Shown one piece after another: positions 51 to 48,331 of a stretch of 64,000 bases of DNA. The stretch lies in the IMG/VR virus record IMGVR_UViG_3300032288_003197, positions 8,340 through 72,339 of that record. One strand, 5' to 3'. A model generated the notes under the pieces. The model was given only the letters and a program-made list of their open reading frames with translations, had not been told where the DNA came from and did no database searches. The DNA is from a virus. Made by a program: the position numbers and the translations under genes. Positions within the stretch are counted from its first letter, which is position 1, and each line of letters opens with the position of its first letter.

Positions 51-115
51 TGGTGGACCTGGGCGGCACTGCCCCGCCGTCTTGAATCCGTTTCTCTTTG
101 CTTCATACAGCAATA
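51..115 (-). ncRNA. ssrA: tmRNA tRNA-like 3' (acceptor) piece, probably a circularly permuted two-piece ssrA whose coding piece lies beyond the window start
   Basis: Minus strand reads GAC-GGCGG-GGCAGTG-CCGCC-CAGGTCC-A-CCA: T-stem/loop, acceptor 3' strand with U70 and encoded CCA. A sigma70 promoter lies only ~65 nt upstream of the CCA. The 5' end is estimated from the promoter. Confidence 0.75.
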
Positions 116-121
116 ACTTGC

Positions 122-150
122 AGTATACTGTTTTTAGATATTGTCGTCAA
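122..150 (-). promoter_or_regulatory. sigma70-type promoter for the tmRNA piece
   Basis: TTGACG-N17-TATACT on the minus strand. Confidence 0.7.
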
Positions 151-346
151 CCAGTTCGATCACGTAGCCAATGTATTCTTTGGCGCGCTCACCGTCGCCA
201 GCATCAATGGCTCCTTGTGCATCATCCAAGTAACCCATCATCTGACTGCGCAGATCGGCCATGCTGCCTTCGCGTCGGTCTGGACGAGGAGCATCCATTG
301 CGTCTGCTTCTTTGATGATGTCAATGTATCGTTTTAAATTGCTCAT
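134..346 (-). CDS. small hypothetical protein (possible head-associated)
   Basis: ORF with AAGGA SD and upstream TATAAATA (365-372); N-terminus MSNLKRYIDIIKEA. Confidence 0.65.
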   Translation of the reverse strand: MSNLKRYIDIIKEADAMDAPRPDRREGSMADLRSQMMGYLDDAQGAIDAGDGERAKEYIGYVIELVDDNI

Positions 347-385
347 GGTCAAAATCCTTTGGTGTATTTATAGATAGATCAGTTT

Positions 386-1039
386 TTATTTGAGTATTTG
401 TAGATCCTGGTGCTGGGACACGCGGGTAAACTCAATGTTGGGGGGCGTATTCCTACTGATTTGTATGGCCACACGAACGGACTCGACGTTCTCTACCGCA
501 TGCAATATTGCACTGTTGATACACACCCATTTCTCTGCGGGCAAGCAAACTCGATCAATTTCTTCCAATGTGTCAAAATTCTTTGTGATGAGATTGGGAT
601 CAAAAACTGACTTCAAGTCAGGGCGCAAGAGCGGATACCCATGCTGTCTGTACCATGATGTTTCTACACGACTGCCGCCAGTGTCCAGGATATACATGAT
701 AGTGTAGTCCCTACTGATGTCCACGTGCGGGGCAAAGAACGAACTGTGTGCGTCATATACTGCTACACCACATGGCGCAGGGTCTTGATCAAAATACTGG
801 CGTACCCATGCATCAAACTCTTCGCTGATACTGTACCTATGAGACTTTATTGTCTTGACTTCCGACCCATCTCGCAGAGTAAAATTTCGATATTCATACT
901 CTGCATAGCCTGGCCGATCAAGCCAATTATTCACCTTGACTTCGTGATTGCCCTTGTTTGTTTCTAGACTTGCCCAGGCCGCATCCACAATTGTTTGCGG
1001 CAAGGGTGGCAAGTCTAAAAATGCATAGGTAAATGTCAC
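386..1039 (-). CDS. 2OG-Fe(II) oxygenase-like protein
   Basis: HxD...H...R pattern (APHVD ... LHAVEN ... RVAIQI). Confidence 0.6.
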   Translation of the reverse strand: MTFTYAFLDLPPLPQTIVDAAWASLETNKGNHEVKVNNWLDRPGYAEYEYRNFTLRDGSEVKTIKSHRYSISEEFDAWVRQYFDQDPAPCGVAVYDAHSSFFAPHVDISRDYTIMYILDTGGSRVETSWYRQHGYPLLRPDLKSVFDPNLITKNFDTLEEIDRVCLPAEKWVCINSAILHAVENVESVRVAIQISRNTPPNIEFTRVSQHQDLQILK

Positions 1040-1923
1040 TTTTTGGTTTTTTCTGCTATTTGTTCAAAGATTCGAATTTCTCTGTTGGCATACTGCGCAG
1101 ATCTCTGTGGTCCATAATTCAACACAGTAAGACCCAGCAAATCTTTGAAACTGGTATTGGTGGAATCTTGAACCAGTCGTGACATTTCTGTTACAGCAGT
1201 ACGATCGGTGTCTTGTCTGGCCCAGACTGCGTACCAATTGTTGGTGTAATTTCCACTGAATCCCATTTCACTGGCAGTGGGCACATTTGGCAGCTGAGGC
1301 AGTCTCCGCTCTCCAAACACCATGACAGGACGAACTTGTCCGTTGTTGAAAGACGGCCCAATTCCGGTGTAAGCCAAAACTCCGTATTCAGTATGACCGG
1401 GCAACACATCGTTGACCATTGGTGCCAGCCCTTTGTAAGGAATCAAGTTGAGTCGCGTGGGCCATTTTAGATCATTGAGCCATATTTCTCCTTGATTGGC
1501 AACACCCACATTAATGATGTCTTGATTTCGGATCTGTTGTCTGATCTTGGTATCGCTGCCAGCGGTGAACATCACATATGGACTTTCGCCGATCAATGAC
1601 ACTGGTACAAATTCTCGATAAGTGTTGGTGCCCAGCATTGCCGGACCCACCACAAATCCAGCCTCGGCAACGATAAATGTGTGATTGTCGTTGGGCCTAT
1701 TCAAAACATGTGTGGTAGCAACCGCCAGTGCCGCGCCAGGCATGTATTGAACTTCAACTGGAACTGAAACTTTACCTTGAAAGTCTTTTTGCATGGCTCT
1801 TGCAAATTTATCAATAAGTCCACCAGGCGGATACGGAACAATAAGAGTAATGGACTTAGACGGCCATGCCAGTGCAGACACTGAGATTAGCATGGCCGAG
1901 ATAAAGGTCAACAGTTTTTTCAT
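1036..1923 (-). CDS. Bug/TctC family tripartite tricarboxylate transporter substrate-binding protein
   Basis: Signal peptide, then WPSKSITLIVPYPPGGLIDKFAR, IPYKG and LPNVPTASEMG. Start moved to MKKLL behind a GAGGA SD. Confidence 0.85.
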   Translation of the reverse strand: MKKLLTFISAMLISVSALAWPSKSITLIVPYPPGGLIDKFARAMQKDFQGKVSVPVEVQYMPGAALAVATTHVLNRPNDNHTFIVAEAGFVVGPAMLGTNTYREFVPVSLIGESPYVMFTAGSDTKIRQQIRNQDIINVGVANQGEIWLNDLKWPTRLNLIPYKGLAPMVNDVLPGHTEYGVLAYTGIGPSFNNGQVRPVMVFGERRLPQLPNVPTASEMGFSGNYTNNWYAVWARQDTDRTAVTEMSRLVQDSTNTSFKDLLGLTVLNYGPQRSAQYANREIRIFEQIAEKTKK

Positions 1924-2013
1924 ATATCCTCTCAAAAAGTAATTGTTGAACAAAAGCACTGCTAGAGTGCTTTTGTCCGGTGCTGACAACGGGGACGATT
2001 CCCGCGTTGCTGT

Positions 2014-2973
2014 TTATTGATGTTGTTGAATGCTTTCGACCAAACCAGGAGTGAATGTATCGCGGAATTGATCATACACACCGCTCAGTGCAGCCTTGGC
2101 AGCTTCGCGTTGTTCTTGTGTCCACTTCACAATGTTGGCACCTTCTTCTGCAACAAGACGCTGTTCGGCACGAGCACCGTCACGAATGGTTTCGGCACGC
2201 TCTTCGCGACCAGCCAGCACAGCAGCTTGTTTGATCACTGCTTGAACTTCGGGACTCAATGTATCCCAGAACTTGTCGCCAATGATCATTGATGTAAGGA
2301 ACAAACTGTGACCAGTGTCAATCACTGACTTGGTAACTTCGTTCTGACGCAGTGGATACACACGTGGGTAGTTGGTTTCACCGCCTTCAGCTTCACCGTC
2401 AACCACGACCTGACGCAGGTCTTCTACTTCGGCCACAACAGGCTTCATGCCCAGTGCAGAAATAGTTGCTTGTGCAACAGGATTACGGTTTGAACGAACT
2501 GGTGTTCCTGCAAGCTCTTCCAATGTGCTGACTCGCTTGTTGGAAATCATTTGGCGGAAGCCACCTGAGTATGTGAAACTCAAGCCACGCACATTTGACT
2601 TGTCTGTGAGCTTGGCAAGCAGTGTTTCACCAACTTTGCCCTCTAGTACACGAGTTGCGTGATCGTGGTCTTTGAACAAGAATGGGAGATCAAATACCAA
2701 AAAGTCCTGCTCGTACTTCTCAGCAAGCCATGTGGTGTACATTTGACTCATTTCAATTTTGCCCTGTTCCATGAGGTCCAGTAGATCGTGCTTGGTGACC
2801 ACAACGCCGTTGTTGTAGCGTTGGCTGTACTCGGTAAGAGTCATGATTTCCACTTCGATTTTGTGCTCGCTTTGTTGCTCGTTTACACGACGCTCAAAGT
2901 CTTCAGCAGCACGAAGGAAAAGATTCAAAGGTTCATGGGCAATGACCCAGCGAATTTTGGTAGTGTTACTCAT
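2014..2973 (-). CDS. dctP: TRAP transporter DctP-like substrate-binding protein with no obvious signal peptide
   Basis: VFDLPFLFKDHDHA, GGFRQM and FWDTLSPEVQAVIKQAA motifs. Start moved to MSNTTK. Confidence 0.8.
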   Translation of the reverse strand: MSNTTKIRWVIAHEPLNLFLRAAEDFERRVNEQQSEHKIEVEIMTLTEYSQRYNNGVVVTKHDLLDLMEQGKIEMSQMYTTWLAEKYEQDFLVFDLPFLFKDHDHATRVLEGKVGETLLAKLTDKSNVRGLSFTYSGGFRQMISNKRVSTLEELAGTPVRSNRNPVAQATISALGMKPVVAEVEDLRQVVVDGEAEGGETNYPRVYPLRQNEVTKSVIDTGHSLFLTSMIIGDKFWDTLSPEVQAVIKQAAVLAGREERAETIRDGARAEQRLVAEEGANIVKWTQEQREAAKAALSGVYDQFRDTFTPGLVESIQQHQ

Positions 2974-3116
2974 TTTTATATCCAGATTAGGTAGTTTAAA
3001 TGTGCTTGCGAGGTTGCTCGCTACGGTTGGCGTTCTAGGCATAACATGCTAGTAAAGGAGTCCATACTCCAGGCGTCTTTGACCCGACGTCGACCACTTG
3101 ATCGGCGCTGCCATGT

Positions 3117-4016
3117 TTATTTAGTCAGAGACACGCCTTGACTCAAACGTTTCCATAGTGCCACCTGTGAATCAAACCAAATCTGTGTGGCCGTGGTGTT
3201 GAGGTTGCTGGGATCACAGTAGTCCACAGCATAGGCACGCTGCACTGCATCTGTTCGGCCGGCTTGCAGTACCAAACTTCGCAGTTCTTGGTACTGTGCT
3301 TCGGGCATGGATTTTGGCACTTGCAAACTGTGCATGTTAACCACCTCGCCCACTCCAGCAAAGCCCTGACTTTCCAAGGTGGCAATGCCACGCACTGTTT
3401 TCTTGCCTGAAATGCCCAGGGCGTTGAGGTCACCCTTGTCCAAGAATCCTTCAACTTCGCCCAAGAATGCCACGCTGAGATCAATGTTGCCCGAGATAGC
3501 ATCAATACTGGCTTCGCGTGTGCCTTTGTAGGGCACCGGGGTGGCGTTGGGATAGCGTTTGACAATTTCCATGGCCATGAGGTGTGAAGTGGCGCCAAGG
3601 CCAGAAATGCCAATGCTGATCTTTTGATTGCGGTCAATTTCACGCCAACTACGATACTTCTTGCTCACAATCAACATGGGTGCTGCACACTGAGTCATCA
3701 GCGGACGGAAGTCACTGACTCGATGACTCTCATCGGGATAAAAGTTAGGGCGCACAAAAAAAGCTGTACTCGCGGCCAGCACAGCGTTTGGTGTAGCTGC
3801 CACATGTTTGGCACCAATGGTTGCACCGGCACCGGGCTTGTTCTCCAAGATAAAGTTGTATTTCTTTTGACCAGCGTTGAGCTCTTCTACCAAGCTGCGA
3901 CTGTACTGTGCCTGTGTATCGCCCATGCCAAACGGCCAAACAATAGAAATAGTTTGTTGTGCTTGTGCAGCAAAATATGTCAGAGCCGCTGCTGCAGAAA
4001 TTAGAAGTTTTTTCAT
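3117..4016 (-). CDS. Bug/TctC family substrate-binding protein
   Basis: Signal peptide, IVWPFGMG, ENKPGAGATIG, VPYKG. Confidence 0.85.
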   Translation of the reverse strand: MKKLLISAAAALTYFAAQAQQTISIVWPFGMGDTQAQYSRSLVEELNAGQKKYNFILENKPGAGATIGAKHVAATPNAVLAASTAFFVRPNFYPDESHRVSDFRPLMTQCAAPMLIVSKKYRSWREIDRNQKISIGISGLGATSHLMAMEIVKRYPNATPVPYKGTREASIDAISGNIDLSVAFLGEVEGFLDKGDLNALGISGKKTVRGIATLESQGFAGVGEVVNMHSLQVPKSMPEAQYQELRSLVLQAGRTDAVQRAYAVDYCDPSNLNTTATQIWFDSQVALWKRLSQGVSLTK

Positions 4017-5995: not shown

Positions 5996-6070
5996 TGGTC
6001 CGGCCACCAGGAATCGAACCTGGATTGACTGCTTAGAAGGCAGATGTTCTATCCATTGAACTATGGCCAG
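5996..6070 (-). tRNA. tRNA-Arg(TCT)
   Basis: Cloverleaf with CTGGCCA/TGGCCGG acceptor stem, anticodon loop CTTCTAA, GGTTCGATTCC T-arm and encoded CCA. Confidence 0.93.
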
Positions 6071-6073
6071 AAT

Positions 6074-6150
6074 TGGTGCGCCCACTAGGACTTGAACCTA
6101 GGACCAATGGATTATGAGTCCACTGCTCTGACCAACTGAGCTATAGGCGC
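6074..6150 (-). tRNA. tRNA with CAT anticodon, probably Ile2 (lysidine type); elongator Met not excluded
   Basis: GCGCCTATAGCTCAGTTGGTCAGAGC ... GACTCATAATC ... GGTTCAAGTCC ... CCA. Confidence 0.9.
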
Positions 6151-6160
6151 ATTTAAACTT

Positions 6161-6190
6161 ATTATAACAGAAAATTTATTTAACCGTCAA
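6161..6190 (-). promoter_or_regulatory. sigma70 promoter for the tRNA pair
   Basis: TTGACG-N18-TATAAT with extended TGn. Confidence 0.7.
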
Positions 6191-6205
6191 GTTCTTTTTG
6201 GTATT

Positions 6206-6568
6206 TCATGTCACTAGCGAAACCAGCCAAATGTATGTCAAGGCATGTAGGAATTGATCCAGGCCCAGCAACCACCAAAATTGATCGTGTGTGCTGGGCG
6301 CCCAGCCCATTTTAGCGTTGAGATTAGTTTTGACCCAGTCGATGTGATAGTGAATTACAGCATCCGCACAGGCCAACCAGGCCGCAGCCATGGGAGCATA
6401 CCACGCAAAACAAATCCAGGTACCAATGCCATGCAGGCCTGCATGCAGTAGGCCGCCCGGGTGCAGGTAGATGCCTTTGTTGCTGTACTGATATCGATGT
6501 TGCAGTGGAAAATCTACCACAAAGTGTTTGGCAAACAATGCCAACACCAGCCACAAGGTTGGATTCAT
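6206..6568 (-). CDS. DUF3307-like membrane protein
   Basis: KHFVVDFPLQ, HYHIDW and GLDQFLH motifs; hydrophobic segments. Confidence 0.7.
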   Translation of the reverse strand: MNPTLWLVLALFAKHFVVDFPLQHRYQYSNKGIYLHPGGLLHAGLHGIGTWICFAWYAPMAAAWLACADAVIHYHIDWVKTNLNAKMGWAPSTHDQFWWLLGLDQFLHALTYIWLVSLVT

Positions 6569-6795
6569 TGCACGGCTTTCATGTCAAAGTCATCCAGGAT
6601 TTCCATGGCCAGGGCCTGCAAAGTTGACATGGCGTAGTGCTCTTCTTGTCGATACGCCTGGTCAATTTCTTTTTCAATTTTGTCTAGGATGTGCTTGACA
6701 ATGGCTTCACCAAACTGTTGTTGTAGAGCAGGATTGATGGTGGGGTAGTGCGAACCACCGGCCATGAGACTGAAGTTTTTGAACACGTCATTCAT
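6565..6795 (-). CDS. hypothetical protein
   Basis: Start moved to MNDVFK behind a GGAG SD. Confidence 0.6.
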   Translation of the reverse strand: MNDVFKNFSLMAGGSHYPTINPALQQQFGEAIVKHILDKIEKEIDQAYRQEEHYAMSTLQALAMEILDDFDMKAVQ

Positions 6796-7060
6796 GTAGG
6801 TCTCCTTTGAGGCTGTGCCAAAGTTTGGGATCGGTGCCCAAGTAAATTTTATATTTGACATAGTTTCGCCACCTGGTATAGCGATTGACCAGATGTTCTA
6901 CCCAATTAAACATCCTGTCTCTGAACCACAGCGGGTTCAAAACGGCTGTGAGCAACATCACAAACAAAAAAGGCACGGACACAACAACCGATGCCCAGTG
7001 AAAAGTCATGGCCTGATAGTAACGCCCACCTTCGGGGGTGAGTGTGATTTCTTTGTTCAT
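6788..7060 (-). CDS. hypothetical membrane protein
   Basis: One hydrophobic segment; overlaps both neighbours. Confidence 0.65.
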   Translation of the reverse strand: MNKEITLTPEGGRYYQAMTFHWASVVVSVPFLFVMLLTAVLNPLWFRDRMFNWVEHLVNRYTRWRNYVKYKIYLGTDPKLWHSLKGDLHE

Positions 7061-7254
7061 TGCTGCACCTTTCTACATTCAAAGACGCCAGGCACCATTC
7101 TATTTTCTCGGACCATTTGGTCCATGTTTGCAACCAAGGAGGCCTTGACCTTTTCGCACTCTGCCACCTCACGAAACCGACTGATGTGTTCCGTGTGAGA
7201 ACCTGCTGGGCCAGCCCGGGTCAAAATCAAAACAGTAAAGATCAGTTCGTACAT
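7057..7254 (-). CDS. hypothetical protein
   Basis: Its ATG is supplied by the repeated GGAGTTGAAGAATG junction. Confidence 0.6.
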   Translation of the reverse strand: MYELIFTVLILTRAGPAGSHTEHISRFREVAECEKVKASLVANMDQMVRENRMVPGVFECRKVQQ

Positions 7255-7463
7255 TCTTCAACTCCGAAATGTTTTTTGATAGCATCGCCTTCTTCGCTTC
7301 TTTCAAAATCTTCTGCGTCAGGATAACGATCAAAGTAAATTTTGTTACAGATATCAGCACATTCCCGCACAATCAACTCGGCGAACTTTTCTAACTTTGG
7401 GTGATGTTCTAACAACCATTCTATGTCAGCCTGTTCTGCAAGTTCTTTAATTCGTTCGTTCAT
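7242..7463 (-). CDS. small modular protein (MNERI / EKFAELIVREC / FGVEE family)
   Basis: All three family blocks present. Confidence 0.75.
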   Translation of the reverse strand: MNERIKELAEQADIEWLLEHHPKLEKFAELIVRECADICNKIYFDRYPDAEDFERSEEGDAIKKHFGVEECTN

Positions 7464-7657
7464 TCTTCAACTCCGAAATGTTCTCGAATCTCTTCGTAAA
7501 TGTCTAATGCATCGTGTTCAGCGGCAACATTGGCACATTCCCTCACAATCAGTTCAGCGAACTTTTCTACGGTATATTCCCACTTGTATCTTTCCTTGCC
7601 TAGACCATATACATCTAAGTTGGATTCTCTAACAAGTTCTTTAATTCGTTCGTTCAC
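7460..7657 (-). CDS. small modular protein (MNERI family)
   Basis: All three blocks; GTG start. Confidence 0.75.
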   Translation of the reverse strand: MNERIKELVRESNLDVYGLGKERYKWEYTVEKFAELIVRECANVAAEHDALDIYEEIREHFGVEE

Positions 7658-7848
7658 TCTTCAACTCCGAACCAAACCAACACATCTGCTCGGCCAGTGA
7701 ATACCATCCAAGCGGCAGTTATTCTTTTTCGTAGATTTATTCCTGGCCATGACATAGGTCTTGCCTGAGTCCATAATCCATTTTTTCCGGCGGATTGAAC
7801 ATCCCAACATTTGATTTGGTCCGCAGAATATACCATAGGTGTTCTCAT
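7654..7848 (-). CDS. hypothetical protein carrying only the FGVEE tail
   Basis: Unrelated body ending VWFGVEE. Confidence 0.7.
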   Translation of the reverse strand: MRTPMVYSADQIKCWDVQSAGKNGLWTQARPMSWPGINLRKRITAAWMVFTGRADVLVWFGVEE

Positions 7849-8081
7849 TCTTCAACTCCGAAATGTTGTTTAATCAAATCATATGCTTGACCACGGCTAA
7901 CCATGTCACGTAGCATAGGACTCAATGCTACACCACATTCCCGAACAATCAACTCAATCAAACCGTCAACTTCTTCTCGATACATGAAATAGTGGTCATC
8001 TTCTACTGTTTCACCATACGAATTGAAGTAATCTCGGCAATAATGCTGTTTTAGGTATGCTTCAATATGTTCAATCATCAT
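7845..8081 (-). CDS. small modular protein (middle and C-terminal blocks only)
   Basis: LIELIVRECG ... IKQHFGVEE with a different N-terminus. Confidence 0.7.
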   Translation of the reverse strand: MMIEHIEAYLKQHYCRDYFNSYGETVEDDHYFMYREEVDGLIELIVRECGVALSPMLRDMVSRGQAYDLIKQHFGVEE

Positions 8082-8338
8082 TCAACTCCGAAATGTTCTT
8101 TGATCGTATCGCCACACGAATAAGCAGTATCTCTACCATCAGCATCATTGTATCCTGCTCTAACTGCCGCAATACCTGCACAAACTTCTACACATTCTGC
8201 CACAATCAACTCGGCGAACTTTTCAAACCGAATTTTATCCCACGTTTGAATATTAAACCCTTCTTCGGGTGTGTATGTATGTGTCTTGTCGGCATAGTCA
8301 ATAGCCTCTTGGAAAAGTTCTCGAATTCGTTCGTTCAT
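8078..8338 (-). CDS. small modular protein (MNERI family)
   Basis: All three blocks. Confidence 0.75.
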   Translation of the reverse strand: MNERIRELFQEAIDYADKTHTYTPEEGFNIQTWDKIRFEKFAELIVAECVEVCAGIAAVRAGYNDADGRDTAYSCGDTIKEHFGVE

Positions 8339-8616
8339 CGTTCAATCCAATTATAAAAATTCAATACTTCGTCCACGCTGTTTGCCCACCGATCAAAATC
8401 CGACAAAGGGCAACTAACATCCACAAAGAACTCACCCTCATCACCCCACCAACGGAAACGATATGCTCGGCCTTTATAATGCGATACAGAACCCATCTTG
8501 AAGAAGTCACGAGTTACACTATGTCCACGTTTCTTCAACATAGTTTTGAATTCGCTGGGACTCATACCCCATAGTTGCTCTCTTGTTGGCTTGCGGTGTT
8601 TATATTTGAACTTCAT
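8335..8616 (-). CDS. hypothetical basic protein
   Basis: ORF with 4-nt overlaps on both sides. Confidence 0.7.
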   Translation of the reverse strand: MKFKYKHRKPTREQLWGMSPSEFKTMLKKRGHSVTRDFFKMGSVSHYKGRAYRFRWWGDEGEFFVDVSCPLSDFDRWANSVDEVLNFYNWIER

Positions 8617-8840
8617 TCTTCAACTCCGAAACGTTTCTTAATCTCAGCCGCAGTCCAACTGTCTCGGTCATTCAGCCCCGAAGCTGCACTAAACTGTTCG
8701 TTAGCAATGTCAGCACATTCCCTTACAATCAACTCGGCGAACTTTTCTTTGAAATTGTCAAACCATTCCAATCCCTGTGGTGTCACATACTCCGCATAAT
8801 CTCTTGCCTGTTCAGCAAGTTCTCGAATTCGTTCATTCAT
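8613..8840 (-). CDS. small modular protein (MNERI family)
   Basis: All three blocks; start moved to MNERIRE. Confidence 0.75.
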   Translation of the reverse strand: MNERIRELAEQARDYAEYVTPQGLEWFDNFKEKFAELIVRECADIANEQFSAASGLNDRDSWTAAEIKKRFGVEE

Positions 8841-9237
8841 AGTCATAGCCTTCAGTCTCGTAACTGCCGGCGGTTTCAATATGCACATGGCCGAAACGGA
8901 TCAAGCCATGATCCTCACTGACTTCAAACGGCTGATCAAAATCCACAATGGCGCCCAGACGTTTGATATCGCGAGTGTTGTCGCGAATGTCGTCTACCAG
9001 GATGCAACCAATCAGGCCAGCATCCACTGAGTGGCTGGTGCCAATGTTTGATTGGTATACCCCGTCGCCATGCGCAGTTCCGAAGCTGGCAAAGCGTCGT
9101 CCGTCAGCAAACACAAACTCGCCATCTACACATTGATTGTTGGGCATGGTGATCTCACAGAATTCACCCCACTCATCGTGCATCACATAGCACAGGTCAC
9201 CGATGTAATAACGTCCAGCGGGCATGGTCATGATCAA
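8833..9237 (-). CDS. hypothetical phage protein
   Basis: MPAGRYYIGDLCYVM ... VDAGLIG; coupled to neighbours. Confidence 0.75.
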   Translation of the reverse strand: MIMTMPAGRYYIGDLCYVMHDEWGEFCEITMPNNQCVDGEFVFADGRRFASFGTAHGDGVYQSNIGTSHSVDAGLIGCILVDDIRDNTRDIKRLGAIVDFDQPFEVSEDHGLIRFGHVHIETAGSYETEGYDYE

Positions 9238-9491
9238 CCCCAGTCCTTTTTGTCACCGTGTTGTTCATTGTAATTGAAGCCTGCGGTGTAGGCCACAATC
9301 TGTTCAGCAGTCATGTCGTCCATTTCCACGCGGCGTGAAGAGCCAGTGTCGCCCACATAGAAGTGTGGATTGTATCCGCGATGGTAATAACTGTCAGCCG
9401 AGCCGCGATCAAACGCACCGCCATGCCGGCGATCATACAGTCGGCCGTTGATTTCAATAGATTGGTTCATGGTTGCAATTGATTCAGTCAT
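9234..9491 (-). CDS. hypothetical phage protein
   Basis: RHGGAFDRGSADSYY; start moved to MTESI behind AAGGAG. Confidence 0.75.
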   Translation of the reverse strand: MTESIATMNQSIEINGRLYDRRHGGAFDRGSADSYYHRGYNPHFYVGDTGSSRRVEMDDMTAEQIVAYTAGFNYNEQHGDKKDWG

Positions 9492-9501
9492 GTCATACTC
9501 C

Positions 9502-9819
9502 TTAAAACGCAAGTTCTTGGGCGGGGAAGCGGATCTTGCCTTCAAACTCCAGCTGATCGCGCTCAAATTCAGTAAGGTAGTCATCGGCCACCACAGACCA
9601 GTGCACAATGCGTTCTTTGAAGGCATCATTGTCCTGTTCGACTTGGCCGCGCACACGATCCACGATGATGTCCACCATGTCGCATTCATCCACACTGCGG
9701 ACCACATAGTCCGAGCCGCCCTTGGCCTTCCAGTAGGCTTCGGCGCCAGTGCCTAGGCTACCGTCTTCGCGCCAGGCGTAATTTTCGTAAACTTGAGTGG
9801 TGATCAGCAGTTTGGACAT
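9502..9819 (-). CDS. hypothetical phage protein
   Basis: AAGGAG SD; lies downstream of a strong promoter. Confidence 0.75.
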   Translation of the reverse strand: MSKLLITTQVYENYAWREDGSLGTGAEAYWKAKGGSDYVVRSVDECDMVDIIVDRVRGQVEQDNDAFKERIVHWSVVADDYLTEFERDQLEFEGKIRFPAQELAF

Positions 9820-9848
9820 TTGGGCTCCTTGTTACTTTCTATGCTTCT

Positions 9849-9880
9849 ATTATAGCAAAATGGGAATTATTGGTCAACCG
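9849..9880 (-). promoter_or_regulatory. strong early sigma70 promoter
   Basis: CGG-TTGACC-N17-TATAAT with extended TG. Confidence 0.8.
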
Positions 9881-10218
9881 ATTTCTACGCCGCGCATGTC
9901 GGTGTTCAAGTTGGGGCAGTGCGCACGGATCAAATCACGCTCAAACGTGTGTGCTAAAGTTTTACCGCGCAACACAGCCAAGACGCTGACAGTGAACGCC
10001 TGGGTACCACGCTCGCGCAGGGCTTCATACAGTGCCCAGCTCTTGTCCTCGCTACGTGAGCGGTACAGGTGCTTGCGGCAACGAGTCATCACGCTGAGTT
10101 TAACAGTCGAAGCAGTCTTGGCAGTGACACCGATGTAGAAGTCCGAGCCCGAAGTCAGCATGTAAACAATGTGGGTACGATCCGAGCGCTTCTTGCGTGA
10201 CTGCTTTTTAAGTTCCAT
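9874..10218 (-). CDS. GIY-YIG family nuclease-like protein
   Basis: HIVYMLTSGSDFYIGVT (GIY-YIG-like) with later conserved R/E/N; start moved to MELKKQ. Confidence 0.6.
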   Translation of the reverse strand: MELKKQSRKKRSDRTHIVYMLTSGSDFYIGVTAKTASTVKLSVMTRCRKHLYRSRSEDKSWALYEALRERGTQAFTVSVLAVLRGKTLAHTFERDLIRAHCPNLNTDMRGVEIG

Positions 10219-10224
10219 ACAAGT

Positions 10225-10256
10225 ATTATAGCAAAAAGGGAAATTCTGGTCAACCG
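10225..10256 (-). promoter_or_regulatory. strong early sigma70 promoter, near-duplicate of 9849-9880
   Basis: CGG-TTGACC-N17-TATAAT with a near-identical spacer. Confidence 0.8.
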
Positions 10257-10258
10257 TT

Positions 10259-10624
10259 TTAGTACCGTTGTAAACTTGCCACAAATCGGTTGACATCATT
10301 ATACAGGGCATACATGGTGGCTTCTTTACTGGCAAAGAAGCATAGTTTGGAACGCTTGCCTGCTTTGATATAGTAAGGTGCAGTAAGTTTGCGGTCCAAC
10401 ATCAACAGTATTCTAGGAATGGCTTGAATAGCTACCTCGGTTTCAAAATCCCAGTGTTCGAGTTTGTATTGCTCAAATGCTTCAAACCCAACAGAGGAAA
10501 GCCGCCAGCCACCATCAGGATTTTGCCACCATTCTCTCATGGCTTCTTCCACGGTCCATATGTCAGACTGTGCTACTAAATTTTTTGTGAATTTTGTTTT
10601 ATTGGGCACTAACTGCAAATTCAA
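10259..10624 (-). CDS. hypothetical protein
   Basis: ORF in a coupled minus-strand run; exact start uncertain. Confidence 0.65.
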   Translation of the reverse strand: MNLQLVPNKTKFTKNLVAQSDIWTVEEAMREWWQNPDGGWRLSSVGFEAFEQYKLEHWDFETEVAIQAIPRILLMLDRKLTAPYYIKAGKRSKLCFFASKEATMYALYNDVNRFVASLQRY

Positions 10625-21488: not shown

Positions 21489-23861
21489 TTAAAGATTAAA
21501 CTTAAAAGTTGCCTTGGCTTGGTAAGCTTTCTGATCATTGATCACTGCACCAATATTGAACAAATGCTTTCCTACTTTCCAAGTGTAATCCGATCCGACA
21601 AACGTCACTGCTTGGTTACGAATTGCAACACTGTGTGTAGTATAATGCATGGTTCCCTGTGTGTCAACGGAAGTTGGCAATTTTACTTTTATATTGCCGC
21701 TGAATGCAGTGGGTTGTAGACCACCATACACTGTAAGTCCGTTGCCTTTCCATCCTCCCACAACATAGCCCAACCACATGGGAGAAATTTTTTCAACTAA
21801 TCCAGGTGTGAGGTCCACCATGGATTGAATTGTGCCCAGTTGCCCAAAAAATCCATTGTTCCAAAATCTCGTGGCATTGAAATCATACATTGTGGTTCGA
21901 TTTATGCTGCCAAACATACCACCCACACTGATCCACGGATTGCCTTTTTGCAACACTGCCACACCCATGCGATATACCCACGACGAGTTGGTATTTAGAT
22001 CAAGGGCTTTGTTGGTAAAACTCAATGAATACGACGACTCGTCGCTGCCACTGAGGCTAAATCCATTGACGTTGTAATTTTCCGCACCGGTAAATCTGCT
22101 GCTCCAATTTTGAGTAATGTCAGAAGTGTATAGATTAAATTTGATTGGAATGCCCAAGGGCTGCGGCGCCATGCCCTCAAGATTTACAGAAAAATTTCGA
22201 TTCAACGAATCAACGGCTTGAATGTTGTTCAGCAGTGCAGAATTCATTCCAGGAACACTCAAAGAACCATTGATGGGAATCCTGTGTCCTGTTCGACCGT
22301 TCAAAGTAATTGCCAGTGTGCCAATGGGCTTCATCACTGCGTCGAAGTCTATGACCGGAATGCCATCTACCCAGTTTACAACAGATTTGGCCAACGCTGA
22401 GTTGGCCTCTGCCGGACTCATCCAGGGCCATGCTTGTTGTAACACTGCCACAGTGGCTGGTGCAGTCACAGTTCCGGTTGAACCGATCAAACTTAGATAA
22501 ACAGCAATCTGCGGCGCACCGTTGGCATCAGTGGTTTCAACACCGGTCATTAAGTATCGTTTCCCCTCAGGTCCCGATACTATGGCAATGGCCTGATTTT
22601 GTATTGCACCAGGAGTCATTGCCTTGGTTTGATTGGCAAAATCGGTAAACACCTGACTGTAACTTTCAACAAACTTGCCTTCTTTGGTGGCCAGCAACAC
22701 AGATGTAGACGCCTGGCCGGTGTAATCTGTGGCTGAAATCAAAATGTCCATCAGCCCGTCGTTGTTGACGTCAATCAACTGTGGGTTATACGTTGTGGTT
22801 TTGTTGGTGTTGTAGTTGACCAGCACTGTATCAGTCACATCGACAAATCTACCACTGCCGTAGTTTTTAAGAAACTGCACTTCGCTATAGCCATGTGCAT
22901 TACTGCCCTTGGGCATGGTGCTGAACACCACAACATCTGGCACACCGTCGTTGTCAAAATCCATGGTAATGTTACGAACTGCGTGTGGAGCTAGACTGGT
23001 CGACGCACGAACTGTGTTCCATTTGGGCAACATAAATCTGTCCGGAGGCAGGTCTGCAATTTTTGTAAGAACCAGTTTGCCATTTTCGATTTTCCAAGAA
23101 AATAGCCTGGTGTCATCACCACCACTAGTGCCTTGTGGAGAATCAGTGATTACCATGGTTTTGGTTCCGTTGCCTAAGTAGTCAGCAACACTGATACCCG
23201 CACCACCGCCAAAATTATCGCTGCGATACACCGTGAAGTTGCCAGACCTTGATCCAAATGCCACAGCGGGTTTGGTGTTTAAAATATCAGTGACAAAAAT
23301 GTCAGCAATGCCATCACCGTTGAGATCTGTTACAATACTGTCGTGCGCACCCACATCGCCAAGATTCACATTGACTCGGGTGAAACTGCTGCCGTTGTTG
23401 AAAAACACAGGCATGGGCGCGGTGATGTTGGTGTCCGAAAACGTGGCAGCAAACATATCAATCTTGCCATCACCGTTGAAATCGCCAAATCTAATTGTGG
23501 TGCCGCCCAGGTAACGAGTGTCTGTGCCCGAAAGCCATCTAGTGGTTTCGTTTGAAAATTTACCTGTGTTGAATCCGTAAATTTGTAAATTGGAATCTTT
23601 CCACCCACCTGGTTTGTTTTGACTGTTGAACGCCACCGACGAAACAACAACTTCGTCGCTGTTGTCGTTGTTCAAGTCTCGGGTGAAAATTTCTGTAACA
23701 GGTGTTGTATAGGACGAAGTTACAACGGGATTGTAGTGGTTAATGGCTTGGGGCGCATAAAAAGGAACTTCCGAGCGGAGGTATCCACCAGCGGTCCCGC
23801 CACCACCACCACACCCAGTTAAAACCAAAGTTGACAGAAAGAGCGCAACAATTTTTTTCAT
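21489..23861 (-). CDS. FG-GAP/VCBS-repeat lipoprotein with a beta-rich C-terminal domain
   Basis: Lipobox VLTGC; repeated DxNxDGxxD motifs; ends AKATFKFNL. Confidence 0.8.
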   Translation of the reverse strand: MKKIVALFLSTLVLTGCGGGGGTAGGYLRSEVPFYAPQAINHYNPVVTSSYTTPVTEIFTRDLNNDNSDEVVVSSVAFNSQNKPGGWKDSNLQIYGFNTGKFSNETTRWLSGTDTRYLGGTTIRFGDFNGDGKIDMFAATFSDTNITAPMPVFFNNGSSFTRVNVNLGDVGAHDSIVTDLNGDGIADIFVTDILNTKPAVAFGSRSGNFTVYRSDNFGGGAGISVADYLGNGTKTMVITDSPQGTSGGDDTRLFSWKIENGKLVLTKIADLPPDRFMLPKWNTVRASTSLAPHAVRNITMDFDNDGVPDVVVFSTMPKGSNAHGYSEVQFLKNYGSGRFVDVTDTVLVNYNTNKTTTYNPQLIDVNNDGLMDILISATDYTGQASTSVLLATKEGKFVESYSQVFTDFANQTKAMTPGAIQNQAIAIVSGPEGKRYLMTGVETTDANGAPQIAVYLSLIGSTGTVTAPATVAVLQQAWPWMSPAEANSALAKSVVNWVDGIPVIDFDAVMKPIGTLAITLNGRTGHRIPINGSLSVPGMNSALLNNIQAVDSLNRNFSVNLEGMAPQPLGIPIKFNLYTSDITQNWSSRFTGAENYNVNGFSLSGSDESSYSLSFTNKALDLNTNSSWVYRMGVAVLQKGNPWISVGGMFGSINRTTMYDFNATRFWNNGFFGQLGTIQSMVDLTPGLVEKISPMWLGYVVGGWKGNGLTVYGGLQPTAFSGNIKVKLPTSVDTQGTMHYTTHSVAIRNQAVTFVGSDYTWKVGKHLFNIGAVINDQKAYQAKATFKFNL

Positions 23862-44224: not shown

Positions 44225-47200
44225 TCATCTCATGATTGGGAGTACTTCTACTTGGGTTCCGTATGTATAACCTTGTTGCGCCAGCCAGCGAGTTGCAACA
44301 CGATTTGCATCACCTTGACTGTTGCCCACACCACCAAATCGATACAGCTCGCGACCATTGTTGTCGACCACTTGCCACTCGCCTGTGAACCTGCCGCTGG
44401 CAGCAAGACCTTGATCTATTAGACTGCCAGGATCTGAACTTTGCTGTGTGCTCGGAGTCTGCGTAGCCAGTGGAATATCAAGTTCAACGTCAGTGACTCC
44501 CGGTATAGGCACAGATTGATATTGAGCTGCTCGTTGACGTTGTAGGTCTAGAGTGGATCCAGGAACAGGTGGTTGTCCTAATCGTTGGCCGGGATCATAT
44601 CTCAGTTGCCATTCTCCAGGATTCTCACGGCTCCATTGCAGCAACACTGTGTCGGCATCGCCGGCATCTGCTGCCATGAAACGATAGGCGATTGGATCGT
44701 CCACAGAGGCACGGTTTCTCACTATAACATAGGAGCCATCAGGATTGCTGGGACGACCGTTCACAGTCGGTCCTGCACTTTTCGGTGCGGATCCTTGATA
44801 TGGGCGAAGCGGTTTTGCTCGTAGAGATTGCGCAGCCTGACTCATTGGATGAATTCCCCACTCTCGTACCGCAGCAGCAATGGCTTCTTGCGCATTGCTG
44901 GCCACAACTTCTATGCTGCGAGTGTTTTCCCATTCCACATTCCACCACATGGCACCAGTTTGTTTGCCCTTGGCCACACTGCGTTGCAACTGTGCTTGGC
45001 GCACAAAACTCTTCAAGGCCTGCTGAGGCAAATCACCAACTGCATATTTTGTAAAGTATTGTATTGTGTCTGTATCTGCTGAATCTTTTGACAACAACTT
45101 GTACAGCTTTTTTTGATATTCTTCTCGATATGCTTCAGGATCCAGGGCCGCGCTCATGGCCACTGTAAATCTCAACAATGTGTTTTCAATTTGATCAAAG
45201 TTTTCGTTGAGCCAATCACCACCTGGTGAGCGAAATTCTATCCAGCCCTCTTTGGTGTTGATACTGGTGTATTTTCCTGTTTCACCTGAATGTATGGCCT
45301 TGGATGCCAAGTCCTCCATGTGTCCGCGCATTTTGTTCAGCAGCGATTGTGCAGCATTAGGATCCTGTTTTACTCTGTCTTTGACAATTTTCAAAGCAGA
45401 TTCACAATAGGAGTTGCTGGATCTGCCAAATGTGTCCAGTACATATTGATCGCCCATGAGCAAGGCCAGTTTAACAAAGTCTAATCGGTCCTGAGAATAT
45501 CCCGGCACCGAAATGTTGATGTGTAAACCTGTGCTGCTATTGGTGTAACAACCACGACTCGTGGCCCAGGCCTTGACTTTGTTAAGATCACTCAGCATTT
45601 GATCAATGGGCAAGGGCGGAGATACAAATTCTAGACCGGCATCGTTGTGGTCGTCGGCTTCAATACTGCCATCAGGCTCTACCACATAGTGTCCGGCTTC
45701 TCTGCGACCTTGACTATAGCTAGAGCTGGTATTGACAGGACGACCGATGGCCGCTTCAAAATCGTCACCAACGCTGTCTATAGCAGTATTGGTTTCTGGA
45801 TATACCCAGTGCGGCCAGTTAACATCATAGTTACGGAGAACATCACGCATGGTTTCAATACCTTCTGACTCCAACCACTCTGATTCCAGGGCCGCATTTT
45901 CATTAAATTCTTCGCTCCATTCTTCATAGGCAGCATCCATGTCGCTGCTGCCCACACCGTCAAGGGCTGCGTCGTGTTTTTCTTGAACCAATTCTTCAAT
46001 CTTGGATCTGAGTTCTTCATCGTTGACGCCAAACTCAGGAGCACTGTCTAGAATTTGTTGTTCGGCTTCTTGGCGCCATTCATCTTCGTAGGTTCGCCAA
46101 AGCCAGTCACGAACATAATCATCAACGTCTTCTTTCCACTGTTGCTCTCTCCGCTCTTCCAACCACTCATAATATTGATTGGTCATTTCTTCCCGCAAGT
46201 CGGCAATCTCTCTACCACCGTTGTATTCGCCGTCATCAAAGAATCGAACTGCATCTTCAATGTCACCTACTGATTCGTTGTAATTCCAATCGGGCTCTGG
46301 GTCGACGCTGCCTACGCCATCGCCATTATCAATATCTACGTTGGGCACAACCATTTCAAATTCCATGCCCGCACGTGCACCGGTTTTTGCAGCTTCTTGA
46401 CGCAGATTGCTGGGACTCATTCGAATCTCGCCCAGCACTTCATCTTCTAATAGTTCAAACTCTCTACGCAGGCTTTCCACCAGATCATCTTCTTCGTCTA
46501 CATTGTACGTGGGATCTGTCTTGATCTTACGCATGCCTGCAGGTTGCTGGGGATCCTTGGGGTCAATGTCTGTGACGTCAAGTCCTGTGGCTTTGAGATC
46601 TTTGATAAATTTGTGTTCGGTTTCTTCGTCGCCGAAGCTTATGATAGCACTGGGCGGTCCCTTGCCAAAATCATGTTTGCCCAGGCCTTTCATGTTGCTG
46701 ATATGCTGTCCCAACTTATACCAATCATACACATCACTCACATCCACTCGCACAGTGCCTGCAGGCATGGTAGGCGGAGTCTCAGGACCCAGGGGCTGAT
46801 TCAGTTCGCGATACTGGCCGGGACCTTGGCTGGGCTGTGGCATACGACCTTCGCGTAGGTTCACAGTTTTCATAAGCAACGCAGGTTTACCTTGACTGTC
46901 GGTGTCCAAGGCCAGCTTGTTGGCTTCCCGGCCAACTTGACCTGGTTTGATGTCCACAGTCAGAGCCATTGAGTAACGTGGATCGCGAGCTTGTTTTTTG
47001 TTCTTGGGAATGTAGCCACTTGCACTTTCCTCTAGCGACACATCTCGAAACATTTCAGGGTGTTTGTCCGCCCAGTGACGCATGATTCTGCCGGCCATGG
47101 CATTGGCTTCATCTTCCCAGGGACTGCCTGTACCACCTGCATCGTCCGGCAAAGTTTGCAGTTCGTTTTGTCGGCAATGAGTGAGCTCATGTGCCATGGT

Positions 47201-48331
47201 TCTCAGGATGTCCAACACATGACGTCCGCTGGTGGCTAGATGCAATAAGTTGTTATCTGGATCAAATTGACCAAAGCTGCCGGTGCTTTCGCTCCAGTCT
47301 GTGTTGTGATGCAACACCATTTCGGGAGCGTTTTCAATATCTAAAAAGTCTATGCAATTGTCGAAAAATCTTGATAGAACAATGTCAATGTCATTTTCAG
47401 TGAGGAACATGGCAGTGGTGGGATTCACACCATCTGGTGATTCATCAACAGGTTCTTCCAGGATGCTCTTGGTACTGGGGTTGACACCATCTGGTGATTC
47501 TGAAAAGCGACTTTCGCCGCCACCACCGTCACCGCCGACCTCGCCGCTGTCACTGAAGCTGAAGCCGGGAGCCCAATAACCACCAAAGCCATATTTGACT
47601 TTTTTCTTTTTGTTTTTCTTTTTAGCTTCAGCCATGCTCAAGTCTCGATCTCGAGCAGCAGTCACGGCGTCTTTCAGCAACTTGATGCAACCACTGTTTC
47701 TCAACAGTTTGAAAGCAATGTTTTCGCAACCAAACTCACCGTGTTGAGCCAGGCCAGCTTGACGCATCTGTTTGATCTTTTGCCACAGTGCGTTGATAAC
47801 AGTCTCGTCGCCTTGCTTGACTGCATCATGAATTCGTGCGTCAAGGTCAGCCACTTTGTCACGCACACAGGCATCATCTATCTTGGCACGTCTGCGACGA
47901 GGAACTGAGATCCACTTGCGGTCTTTTACGGAATAGATGCCTTGACTGTGATGCGGTTGATCAGCGGGTTGCACATACAACTCAACGTCAGCACCACCAA
48001 TGGTTATGTTGTGCTCGTTGTTGTACTGATATTTCTTGGCCGTGAACAGTTCTTGATACACCGGATCCGACGGCATTTGCACCACAAGGTGCAAATCAAT
48101 GTCAGAATTGGGAGTGTAACTGTAGGCTGCGTTTGAGCCTGAAAGTGTGATGTCTTGGATGTCAAGATTTTCTACACCCAAAAATTCTTGGAAATCAGCA
48201 GCGATGGCCAAGAGTTTTTCACGCACTTGCGGCAACAAGTGTTCGTCACGACCCCAGAGCTTGGGGTTGAGACGATTGTGAAATTTTACCGCATCGGCAA
48301 GATTATAAGAGTCCAGTTCTAGAATGTTCAT
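44225..48331 (-). CDS. multidomain protein: Pol-beta nucleotidyltransferase + HExxH zincin + amidoligase (COOH-NH2 ligase)
   Basis: GSNA ... SDIDLH; MAHELTH; GMEFEM ... EPDGSI ... LEFVSPP ... STGLHINIS ... KYTSIN ... IEFRSPG. Confidence 0.75.
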   Translation of the reverse strand: MNILELDSYNLADAVKFHNRLNPKLWGRDEHLLPQVREKLLAIAADFQEFLGVENLDIQDITLSGSNAAYSYTPNSDIDLHLVVQMPSDPVYQELFTAKKYQYNNEHNITIGGADVELYVQPADQPHHSQGIYSVKDRKWISVPRRRRAKIDDACVRDKVADLDARIHDAVKQGDETVINALWQKIKQMRQAGLAQHGEFGCENIAFKLLRNSGCIKLLKDAVTAARDRDLSMAEAKKKNKKKKVKYGFGGYWAPGFSFSDSGEVGGDGGGGESRFSESPDGVNPSTKSILEEPVDESPDGVNPTTAMFLTENDIDIVLSRFFDNCIDFLDIENAPEMVLHHNTDWSESTGSFGQFDPDNNLLHLATSGRHVLDILRTMAHELTHCRQNELQTLPDDAGGTGSPWEDEANAMAGRIMRHWADKHPEMFRDVSLEESASGYIPKNKKQARDPRYSMALTVDIKPGQVGREANKLALDTDSQGKPALLMKTVNLREGRMPQPSQGPGQYRELNQPLGPETPPTMPAGTVRVDVSDVYDWYKLGQHISNMKGLGKHDFGKGPPSAIISFGDEETEHKFIKDLKATGLDVTDIDPKDPQQPAGMRKIKTDPTYNVDEEDDLVESLRREFELLEDEVLGEIRMSPSNLRQEAAKTGARAGMEFEMVVPNVDIDNGDGVGSVDPEPDWNYNESVGDIEDAVRFFDDGEYNGGREIADLREEMTNQYYEWLEERREQQWKEDVDDYVRDWLWRTYEDEWRQEAEQQILDSAPEFGVNDEELRSKIEELVQEKHDAALDGVGSSDMDAAYEEWSEEFNENAALESEWLESEGIETMRDVLRNYDVNWPHWVYPETNTAIDSVGDDFEAAIGRPVNTSSSYSQGRREAGHYVVEPDGSIEADDHNDAGLEFVSPPLPIDQMLSDLNKVKAWATSRGCYTNSSTGLHINISVPGYSQDRLDFVKLALLMGDQYVLDTFGRSSNSYCESALKIVKDRVKQDPNAAQSLLNKMRGHMEDLASKAIHSGETGKYTSINTKEGWIEFRSPGGDWLNENFDQIENTLLRFTVAMSAALDPEAYREEYQKKLYKLLSKDSADTDTIQYFTKYAVGDLPQQALKSFVRQAQLQRSVAKGKQTGAMWWNVEWENTRSIEVVASNAQEAIAAAVREWGIHPMSQAAQSLRAKPLRPYQGSAPKSAGPTVNGRPSNPDGSYVIVRNRASVDDPIAYRFMAADAGDADTVLLQWSRENPGEWQLRYDPGQRLGQPPVPGSTLDLQRQRAAQYQSVPIPGVTDVELDIPLATQTPSTQQSSDPGSLIDQGLAASGRFTGEWQVVDNNGRELYRFGGVGNSQGDANRVATRWLAQQGYTYGTQVEVLPIMR

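Follow-up and report, generated by a model that had tools for sequence, protein, structure and literature searches.

A tandem array of very small genes lies on the minus strand of a 64,000-nt stretch of viral DNA (hereafter the window), which spans bases 8340–72339 of the 72,339-bp IMG/VR virus record IMGVR_UViG_3300032288_003197. The record represents part of the genome of a large uncultured phage, with a CheckV completeness of 21%, and statements about its gene content refer to this fragment of ~72 kb, or ~21% of the genome. The minus strand holds nearly all long open reading frames (ORFs) of the window, and between 8840 and 7057 it carries eight short ones. Seven of these (the array proper, 8840–7242) are linked by 4-nt stop/start overlaps, and they comprise five genes of one family and two unrelated genes.

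Architecture of the Array

Each family gene consists of three conserved nucleotide blocks parted by two variable modules, termed here the N and C modules. The blocks are a start block (ATG-AAC-GAA-CGA-ATT..., encoding MNERI), a 27-nt central block (encoding FAELIVREC), and an end block (encoding K-x-HFGVEE). The genes, the junction copies between them, and the central blocks, which were located by a repeat search, are as follows.

8613–8840, minus: family member, 75 amino acids (aa), MNERI...FAELIVREC...RFGVEE; an alternative start may lie at 8846 (MTMNERI)
8335–8616, minus: unrelated 93-aa ORF; its start lies in a junction (ATGA overlap), and its end, NWIER, overlaps the following MNERI gene by ATGA
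8078–8338, minus: family member, 86 aa; its C module reappears with a different N module in P0116
7845–8081, minus: family member, 78 aa; last two blocks plus a degenerate first block, MMIEHI
7654–7848, minus: unrelated 64-aa ORF, a relative of phrog_21988 (E 1.6e-10); ends in the family's FGVEE tail plus junction
7460–7657, minus: family member, 65 aa, GTG start; three blocks
7242–7463, minus: family member, 73 aa; reads through the junction (FGVEECTN)
7057–7254, minus: unrelated 65-aa ORF; its ATG lies in the last junction copy, with a 13-nt overlap with the end of the 73-aa gene
8614–8630, minus: junction copy 6, exact
8076–8092, minus: junction copy 5, 2 mismatches; FGVE then stop
7846–7862, minus: junction copy 4, exact
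7655–7671, minus: junction copy 3, 1 mismatch; GTG start, GTGA overlap
7461–7477, minus: junction copy 2, exact; GGAG, 7-nt spacer, ATGA stop/start overlap
7252–7268, minus: junction copy 1, exact 17-mer without an internal stop
8715–8741, minus: central block of the 75-aa gene
8192–8218, minus: central block of the 86-aa gene (FAELIVAEC)
7935–7961, minus: central block of the 78-aa gene (LIELIVREC)
7535–7561, minus: central block of the 65-aa family gene
7359–7385, minus: central block of the 73-aa gene (FAELIVREC codons)

The junction, TTCGGAGTTGAAGAATG, has six matches in the window at up to 3 mismatches, all on the minus strand and four of them exact, while shuffled windows hold a mean of 0.16 and none of 100 shuffles reaches six. 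An unbiased repeat search recovers the junction together with the start block (8 copies, 39 nt) and, separately, the central block (5 copies, 25 nt). Five of the six junctions contain the stop of the upstream gene; the remaining gene continues as FGVEECTN. All three blocks (MNERI, EKFAELIVREC, and HFGVE) are present in the four ORFs at 7242–7463, 7460–7657, 8078–8338, and 8613–8840. The array also coincides with a modest but real dip in GC content, which is 0.41–0.44 in 7001–8500 and 0.46–0.52 in the adjoining bins.

These features had been picked out in a first-pass annotation made from the letters of the stretch. It described six junction copies, five of them holding an upstream stop, and four ORFs with three blocks, as well as a region AT-richer than its flanks, and each of these observations was borne out. 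The one ORF said to have only the last two blocks is the 78-aa gene, which in fact keeps a degenerate first block; its homologue P0010 has MNEHI where the window gene has MMIEHI. The unrelated ORF said to carry only the FGVEE tail is the one at 7654–7848, and the unrelated genes said to begin at the junction are those at 8335–8616 and 7057–7254.

Relatives of the family genes are abundant in other viral sequences. At least 599 pattern matches were found in viral loci (numbered with the prefix L below) and 461 of these were confirmed as relatives; the best 80 loci were scanned with a hidden Markov model of the family. They contain 326 members, and 70 of the 80 hold at least two, with up to 11 within ~10 kb. 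Homologues of the 93-aa ORF occur in 11 viral loci, where the following gene usually starts with MNER or MTDREL.

Synonymous Conservation of the Blocks

The first-pass annotation had proposed checking whether synonymous sites in the blocks are conserved. Such sites are conserved above both the expectation from codon usage and the level seen in flanking orthologues. The protein ends in FG[VIL] in 271 of 318 distinct members, and the glycine of this terminal motif is encoded by GGA in 259 of the 271, against a background of 29% in the same genes. The codon that follows is GTT in 228 of the 271 (same-gene background, 41%). Among 99 members with an exact FAELIVREC, the first Glu is GAG in 84 and the second GAA in 97, and Ala is GCC in 86, Leu TTG in 86, and Ile ATT in 98.

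Codon identity was also scored at positions with the same residue in 27,021 pairs of members from different loci in which both variable modules are less than 40% identical. It is 0.72 in the start block (0.43 expected), 0.70 in the central block (0.47 expected), and 0.79 in the end block (0.49 expected). For the four codons that follow the central block the value is 0.45, with 0.39 expected, and for flanking orthologues of the window and its closest relatives it is 0.56 (685/1,230). By this comparison, synonymous sites vary less in the blocks than in genes orthologous between the window and its nearest relatives. A 25-mer that extends the junction is found exactly in at least 119 viral stretches.

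Reassortment of Half-Genes

When 252 members are split at the central block and compared over 31,626 pairs, the identities of the N and C halves are nearly uncorrelated (r = 0.09). The N halves are at least 70% identical in 41 pairs, of which 36 have C halves less than 40% identical and 1 has C halves at least 70% identical. Likewise, the C halves are at least 70% identical in 82 pairs, and in 74 of these the N halves are less than 40% identical. Two or more partner clusters are found for 23 of 24 multi-member N clusters and for 28 of 29 multi-member C clusters. The same pattern is seen in contigs of metagenome-assembled genomes (MAGs), where 1 of 15 module-sharing pairs is concordant, and among database proteins, where 1,962 pairs share a C half and the N identity is below 0.4 in 1,281 and at least 0.7 in 42.

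Individual modules illustrate this mixing. The window and 7 viral loci, 8 sources in all, share the C module of the 78-aa gene (GVALSPML...HFGVEE), each time joined to a different N module, while one N module, 100% identical in three contigs, is joined to three unalignable C modules. For the 65-aa family gene, the C module is 88% identical to one in L117 and the N module is unrelated; the C module of the 73-aa gene is also joined to at least 4 other N modules. Every window gene checked for it has modules that are found elsewhere in other combinations. Taken together, these comparisons indicate that N and C halves assort almost independently, in many combinations across phages.

Shared DNA tends to begin and end at the blocks. 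From its end to position 7955, inside the central block, the 78-aa gene matches L032 at 94% of nucleotides and L081 at 90%. Segments shared by L080 and L070 are 89–98% identical and start and stop at central blocks or gene ends, and one such unit extends between two successive central blocks, taking in a C half, the spacer, and the N half of the following gene. The L070 gene at 2979–3206 corresponds to the N half of one L080 gene (98.4%) followed by the C half of another (95.7%) located 1.2 kb away, with the switch inside the central block, where the alignment shows patchy markers. More generally, high-scoring segment pairs (HSPs) of at least 100 nt and at least 88% identity between all non-collinear locus pairs give 186 distinct endpoints. 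Of these, 143 lie in family genes (9.4% of the DNA); the three blocks, with 52% of gene length, account for 130 of the 143 and variable segments for the other 13. Boundaries of shared DNA thus appear to fall in the blocks, and by these alignments the half-gene swapped at the central block is the commonest exchanged unit, one that the first-pass annotation did not foresee.

Array Turnover among Relatives

Three loci (L022, L081, and L040) share flanking genes with the window at 52–89% amino-acid identity, and the arrays between these flanks differ. Between the syntenic anchors, where the window has five family and two unrelated genes, L081 has two family genes and one unrelated gene, L022 has three family genes with the 134-aa neighbour on the opposite side, and L040 has at least three family genes before the locus ends. 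No family gene in these three loci is a one-to-one orthologue of a window gene, and the best matches are half-genes. Order and content are therefore not fixed across relatives, as had been anticipated for a cassette system. Module-sharing pairs within one locus number 1 of 41 (N) and 1 of 82 (C), compared to 1.3% of all pairs; since sharing within a locus is no commoner than expected, the arrays do not derive from recent local duplication.

The Junction as a Putative Translation Signal and a Portable Tail

In the end block, GGAG is positioned 7 nt ahead of an ATGA stop/start overlap. Such coupling is typical of the family, as 222 of the 326 members share an NTGA overlap with a downstream ORF of at least 40 codons, another 25 overlap such an ORF by one base, and 247 are thus coupled. 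Unrelated ORFs also sit between the junctions and, on the evidence of their termini, can carry the end block. The homologues of the 64-aa gene (27 loci) share a core that ends in DVL[VIM]W, followed by FGVEE, LGDEE, FG, LSEND, FSENE, GEQ, or EIE. Each of these seven tails is encoded by the Shine–Dalgarno (SD)-like stretch that adjoins the next start, and it matches the local junction type. In one phage group with the junction GGGGTGAGCAATGA, unrelated small genes all end in RGEQ or RGER. In loci L095–L104, from a phage group other than that of the window, the universal junction is GGGGTGAG(C/G)(A/G)ATGA, and unrelated small genes all end in ...RGEQ, ...RGER, or ...GGEE; the effect by which a signal writes a protein tail is therefore not peculiar to the family.

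Across the 80 loci, FG[VIL] ends occur in 33 of 2,777 non-family ORFs on the gene strand, compared to 11 of 3,235 ORFs on the opposite strand. Some of the 33 are probably diverged family members. Clearly unrelated ones include two membrane-like mini-ORFs, a 170-aa protein, and two GIY-YIG-like ORFs. The first-pass annotation had suggested that FGVEE may be a by-product of the nucleotide signal. The predominance of GGA and the match of tails to local junctions support this view, but only in part, as FGVE is also near-invariant at the protein level. Because of this near-invariance within the family, the tail, which travels with the junction, probably serves both the protein and the signal. One further family member, the database protein P0058 (111 aa), continues past the junction (HFGVEES...) into a Cys-rich extension and has the appearance of a natural read-through or fusion.

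Family Size, Distribution, and Predicted Structure

The family, with proteins of ~75 aa, is very large, virus-only, and unnamed, and it is apparently undescribed. A family profile matches 7,337 representative clusters at 50% identity (E <= 0.001), 857 of them at 1e-10, and in a 90%-identity protein collection it matches 7,916 of 8,000 scored candidates. The profile against which the five ORFs of the window score E <= 1e-3 was built from these ORFs themselves, and their scores arise by construction; independent support for the family comes from the 326 members in 80 viral loci and the 7,337 representative clusters. All named relatives are viral or metagenomic and are annotated as ‘hypothetical’ or ‘uncharacterized’.

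The five window members have no family match in Pfam, PHROGs, NCBIfam, or PADLOC. A PADLOC match to Cas3d (E 0.014 over 53 residues) was taken as chance. In PHROGs, only the 64-aa and 134-aa neighbours match, to families without an assigned function. Profile searches of the PDB give a best E of 0.39, and Foldseek finds nothing in the PDB at E <= 0.001. Structure searches return solely uncharacterised proteins of uncultured phages in BFVD and viral hypothetical clusters only in the ESM Atlas. Literature searches by motif strings, which returned unrelated papers only, and by keywords found no description of the family, although supplementary files could hold family lists.

Structure prediction, which the first-pass annotation had suggested, yields a confident three-helix AlphaFold2 model of the 75-aa protein from a 91-sequence alignment, with a predicted local distance difference test (pLDDT) score of 86.7 and helices at residues 3–19, 24–54, and 62–71. 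The blocks, which are near-invariant at the protein level across the family, map to the start of helix 1, the middle of helix 2, and the end of helix 3, and may meet at the middle of the molecule. This common-core arrangement is read from helix positions and not from coordinates. Since the three blocks could meet in the middle, the variable modules would lie at the two ends of the protein. Speculatively, such a common core with two variable ends would fit a diversifying binder involved in host takeover or counter-defence.

The start block may also be common to a second family. In L131–L139, homologues of the 93-aa ORF end in NWIE[QSL] and overlap by ATGA onto genes that start with MNER, MTDREL, or MNDREL and end in ...KLKEKNT. 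Among these loci, L137 and L138 encode a protein of 122 aa with the score of a family member.

Expression and Genomic Setting

Three features flank the array on the same strand.

9874–10335, minus: GIY-YIG-like ORF, 153 aa, 1 kb upstream of the array (sub-threshold matches)
9849–9877, minus: sigma-70-like promoter match (TTGACC, 17 nt, TATAAT, TG; 11 of 12), the nearest upstream of the array
5996–6150, minus: tRNA-Arg(TCT) and tRNA-Met(CAT), directly downstream of the small-gene block

Three minus-strand matches of 11 of 12 to sigma-70-type promoters with an extended TG are found, at 10253, 9877, and 6190, none of them within the array. At the junctions and blocks there is no strong promoter match, and near a junction there is only a weak 9-of-12 site (7855–7827). 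No minus-strand terminator-like site was found in 7242–8840. The array is thus plausibly part of one early polycistronic transcript made by the host polymerase from 9877, and its genes are probably early; the one source of this reading of early expression is the match to the consensus promoter. The two upstream matches lie in a 60-nt direct repeat (9825–9884 and 10201–10260, 77% identity) that holds two near-consensus promoters, and these repeated promoters could be early-promoter cassettes in the manner of the PeSLs discussed below. The third match (6161–6190) is just upstream of the tRNA genes. RNA folding gives no common structure at junctions or central blocks, with |z| < 2 in 10 of 11 windows; the six junction windows have z values of +1.56, 0.01, -0.12, 0.23, -0.07, and -2.43.

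By domain scan, the window encodes a family-B DNA polymerase, a ClpB-like AAA+ protein, and a 5′-3′ exonuclease. The ClpB/Hsp104-like double-AAA+ protein (52405–54672, minus) is full-length. Other long minus-strand genes encode a 1,368-aa protein with an amidoligase domain (44225–48331) and a 790-aa protein with FG-GAP repeats (21489–23861). In a blastn search of 6000–10500 against deposited phages (INPHARED), only the tRNA genes match, ~3% of the query, and they are the sole part of this region with nucleotide relatives there; tblastn with the 75-aa protein against deposited phages gives no match. As for the host, 185,579 species genomes contain 18 family loci. Every one of them is in a MAG, with several phyla represented and most of the contigs short, and they give no usable signal.

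Mechanism and Alternative Explanations

The account we favour, and consider fairly likely, is that the mini-genes of this tandem array are translationally coupled and that short-homology recombination shuffles them without a dedicated recombinase. Exchange would take place by ordinary short-homology recombination or gene conversion, both between co-infecting phages and between paralogues, and a dedicated recombinase would not be needed. The same exchange, together with selection on the translation signals of the start and end blocks, would keep the blocks uniform. The end block would act as an SD and coupling signal for any downstream gene, so that inserted units would be expression-ready. The first-pass annotation had proposed that the blocks are recombination handles that work without an integrase, and this proposal has gained support from crossovers that map to the blocks, arrays that vary, synonymous sites that are conserved, and the lack of an integrase on the record. 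The ~72-kb record has no match to an integrase, resolvase, or reverse transcriptase, which does not imply absence from the whole phage. No inverted repeats are found at the junctions, and the 4 short inverted pairs that were found lie elsewhere.

Several observations weigh against this account. GGAG is found upstream of only 13 of 85 crudely chosen window genes, so that the SD role of the end block is putative. With HSPs of at least 60 nt and at least 90% identity, 45 of 312 in-gene endpoints lie in the central block, which makes up 18% of nucleotides, and C-variable ends are slightly over-represented (96/312 vs 25.5%). This unclear result was judged to come from HSPs made of the junction alone, and the test was for that reason redone with the HSPs of at least 100 nt given above. 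Even so, HSP ends at the blocks are partly expected by construction because all members share the blocks, and member pairs are not phylogenetically independent. RecA/UvsX was not found on the fragment. The main caveat is that all sequences come from short-read metagenome assemblies. Logan contigs (k=31) of run X1 break exactly at the blocks, which are branch points in the assembly graph, so some joins may be chimeric.

If these joins were chimeric throughout, the module shuffling would be an artefact of short-read misassembly joining family members at their shared blocks. The depth of the blocks (100–3,100, compared to ~5–30 in the flanks, as summed contig depth in four runs) is in keeping with this, as are the X1 Logan contigs that end at blocks and the metagenomic origin of all loci. 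However, exact runs between unrelated members have a median of 11 nt, a 95th percentile of 23–24, and a maximum of 39–45, with none of 55 nt or more, and metagenome assemblers typically use larger k-mers than these shared runs. The same combinations also recur in independent sources, such as the N-C pairing of the 78-aa gene in P0010 and P0061, and single proteins occur on up to 22 contigs. The segments shared by L070 and L080 differ by 2–10%, so they come from different populations, and one Logan contig of 913 nt spans 7923–8835 without mismatches across two central blocks. Misassembly is therefore very unlikely as a general explanation. A rival that is more improbable again regards the genes as ordinary tandem paralogues, with the blocks kept by the needs of the protein and the junction repeat being simply an HFGVEE end followed by an MNERI start, with no special role for the DNA. 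The near-invariance of the blocks at the protein level, their location on three helices of the AlphaFold2 model, and the frequency of 4-nt stop/start overlaps in the window (21 of 84 adjacent pairs) are what such a reading predicts. It is largely refuted already, however, by position-specific codon conservation in excess of codon usage, adjacent codons, and flanking orthologues, by the independent assortment of N and C modules, by unrelated ORFs that carry the tail, and by the rarity of module sharing within a locus, which argues against recent local duplication.

Conservation could also reflect an RNA-level or regulatory role only (an SD, initiation region, structure, or binding site), with recombination at the blocks being incidental. 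The ideal 7-nt spacing of GGAG, the A-rich start block, and the different SD-like universal junction of a second phage group (GGGGTGAGCAATGA) would all suit this idea, which is nevertheless the least probable of those weighed here, as the central block has no reading as a translation signal, there is no consistent fold in 10 of the 11 windows, and no promoter matches at the blocks. That conservation of the central block goes beyond translation signals, with RNA structure explaining none of it, is instead a point for enzyme-driven diversification, in which a phage nuclease would cut a conserved block and the adjoining module would be co-converted during repair templated by a paralogue or a co-infecting phage. 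The candidate is the ORF at 9874–10335, which matches PF01541 (GIY-YIG) at 12.5 bits (E 0.0099; cut-off 22.6) and TIGR01453 (group I intron endonuclease) at 20.3 bits (E 4.4e-4; cut-off 56). In 12 of the 80 loci its homologues are found no more than 5 kb from family genes, and two of these homologues (L024 4105–4438 and L076 4647–5001) end in ...NTFGVK directly upstream of a family gene. Both matches fall below the curated cut-offs, though, and a direct Pfam scan at E <= 0.01 is empty; 68 of the 80 loci lack such a neighbour in the stretch retrieved, simple synteny between related phages may account for the co-occurrence, and a cleavage site is not evidenced. A dedicated nuclease is hence unlikely, if less so than the three explanations above.

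The short-homology account could be extended to a bolder and rather doubtful one, in which the array is a phage-borne combinatorial library of two-ended binders. The blocks would be selected as crossover sites, and may be cut by a nuclease, while modules and whole genes would be re-dealt at high frequency between co-infecting phages. If true, this would be an integrase-free, translation-coupled cassette system that operates at both gene and sub-gene level in the arms race with host defences.

In the communities sampled, few short sequences are repeated as often as the blocks, which will fragment k=31 assemblies. Depth peaks in the four runs (Logan contigs) are located at 7308–7509, 7813–7913, and 8722–8822. 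In X2 and X8, contigs that carry the flanks stop at ~7274 or 6938 and resume at 8825; these breaks are at repeats, and the interior gap is uninformative. Contig joints in the four runs were considered as deletions or circles and rejected, as their short sides (20–38 nt) and 90% likeness mark them as other family members matching the blocks.

Significance

Modular exchange among phages at short conserved sequences is an old idea with few well-resolved cases, namely PeSLs and tail-fibre adhesins. The present family, with more than 7,000 clusters at 50% identity, is among the largest unannotated small-protein families in uncultured phages. Exchange would occur within a 75-aa protein at a 27-nt block, besides between genes, and the intergenic handle would be the coupling signal itself, so that a peptide tail is imposed on unrelated proteins. 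With the array, it can be tested how little homology suffices for phage recombination in nature and whether recombination sites are themselves selected. It also draws attention to a large set of probable early proteins that could be screened for functions such as host takeover or counter-defence, and it carries a warning for annotation, as a C-terminal peptide conserved among small phage ORFs can arise as a by-product of a ribosome-binding signal.

Comparison with Known Systems

Integron cassettes form arrays of small, promoterless, expression-ready genes of varied content downstream of one promoter. Unlike integrons, the array has no PF00589 integrase match on the 72-kb record and no attC-like inverted repeats at its junctions; moreover, its repeats lie inside coding sequence and exchange also takes place within genes. 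Diversity-generating retroelements combine a reverse transcriptase with a template/variable repeat pair and vary at fixed positions; the array differs from them in that there is no RVT_1 match and the variable modules are unequal in length, unalignable, and recurrent as discrete alleles. Shufflons, with inverted recombination sites and an Rci-type recombinase, differ as well, since the repeats of the array are all direct and no integrase or resolvase was found.

A close likeness is with the PeSL (promoter-early stem-loop) cassettes of T4-type phages, short conserved expression signals that are repeated between small non-essential genes in plastic regions (Arbiol et al. 2010, PMC2839356). Recombination between the PeSL repeats leads to insertion, deletion, and replacement of genes that are ready for expression, with no need of a site-specific recombinase, and excised mini-circles are a further feature of these cassettes. 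Short repeats between small genes, with insertion, deletion, and replacement among close relatives, are also found here. However, a PeSL is an intergenic promoter plus terminator, whereas the junction is an SD plus ATGA overlap within coding sequence and lacks a strong sigma-70-like promoter or a stable stem-loop. In addition, the array has an intragenic handle that swaps half-genes. PeSL cassettes of T4-type phages are reportedly also the subject of a paper by Comeau et al. from 2014 (PMC4122927).

Swapping within a protein has parallels too. The gp38 adhesins of T-even phages have hypervariable segments parted by conserved glycine-rich motifs (Trojet et al. 2011, PMC3157838). In both cases a core of conserved short motifs parts independently interchangeable segments in one small phage protein. 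There is no sequence or fold relationship, and gp38 is a single-copy virion adhesin, while the present family forms multi-copy arrays of helical non-structural proteins of 65–86 aa. Polymorphic toxins exchange their variable C-terminal modules for those of neighbouring cassettes, and the recombination takes place at a conserved sequence ahead of the module (Zhang et al. 2012, PMC3482391). Those proteins are bacterial, large, secreted, and paired with immunity genes, and no toxin or immunity domains were found in the array. Set beside these systems, the array stands as a real and widespread variant of modular shuffling by recombination, and apparently one not described before.

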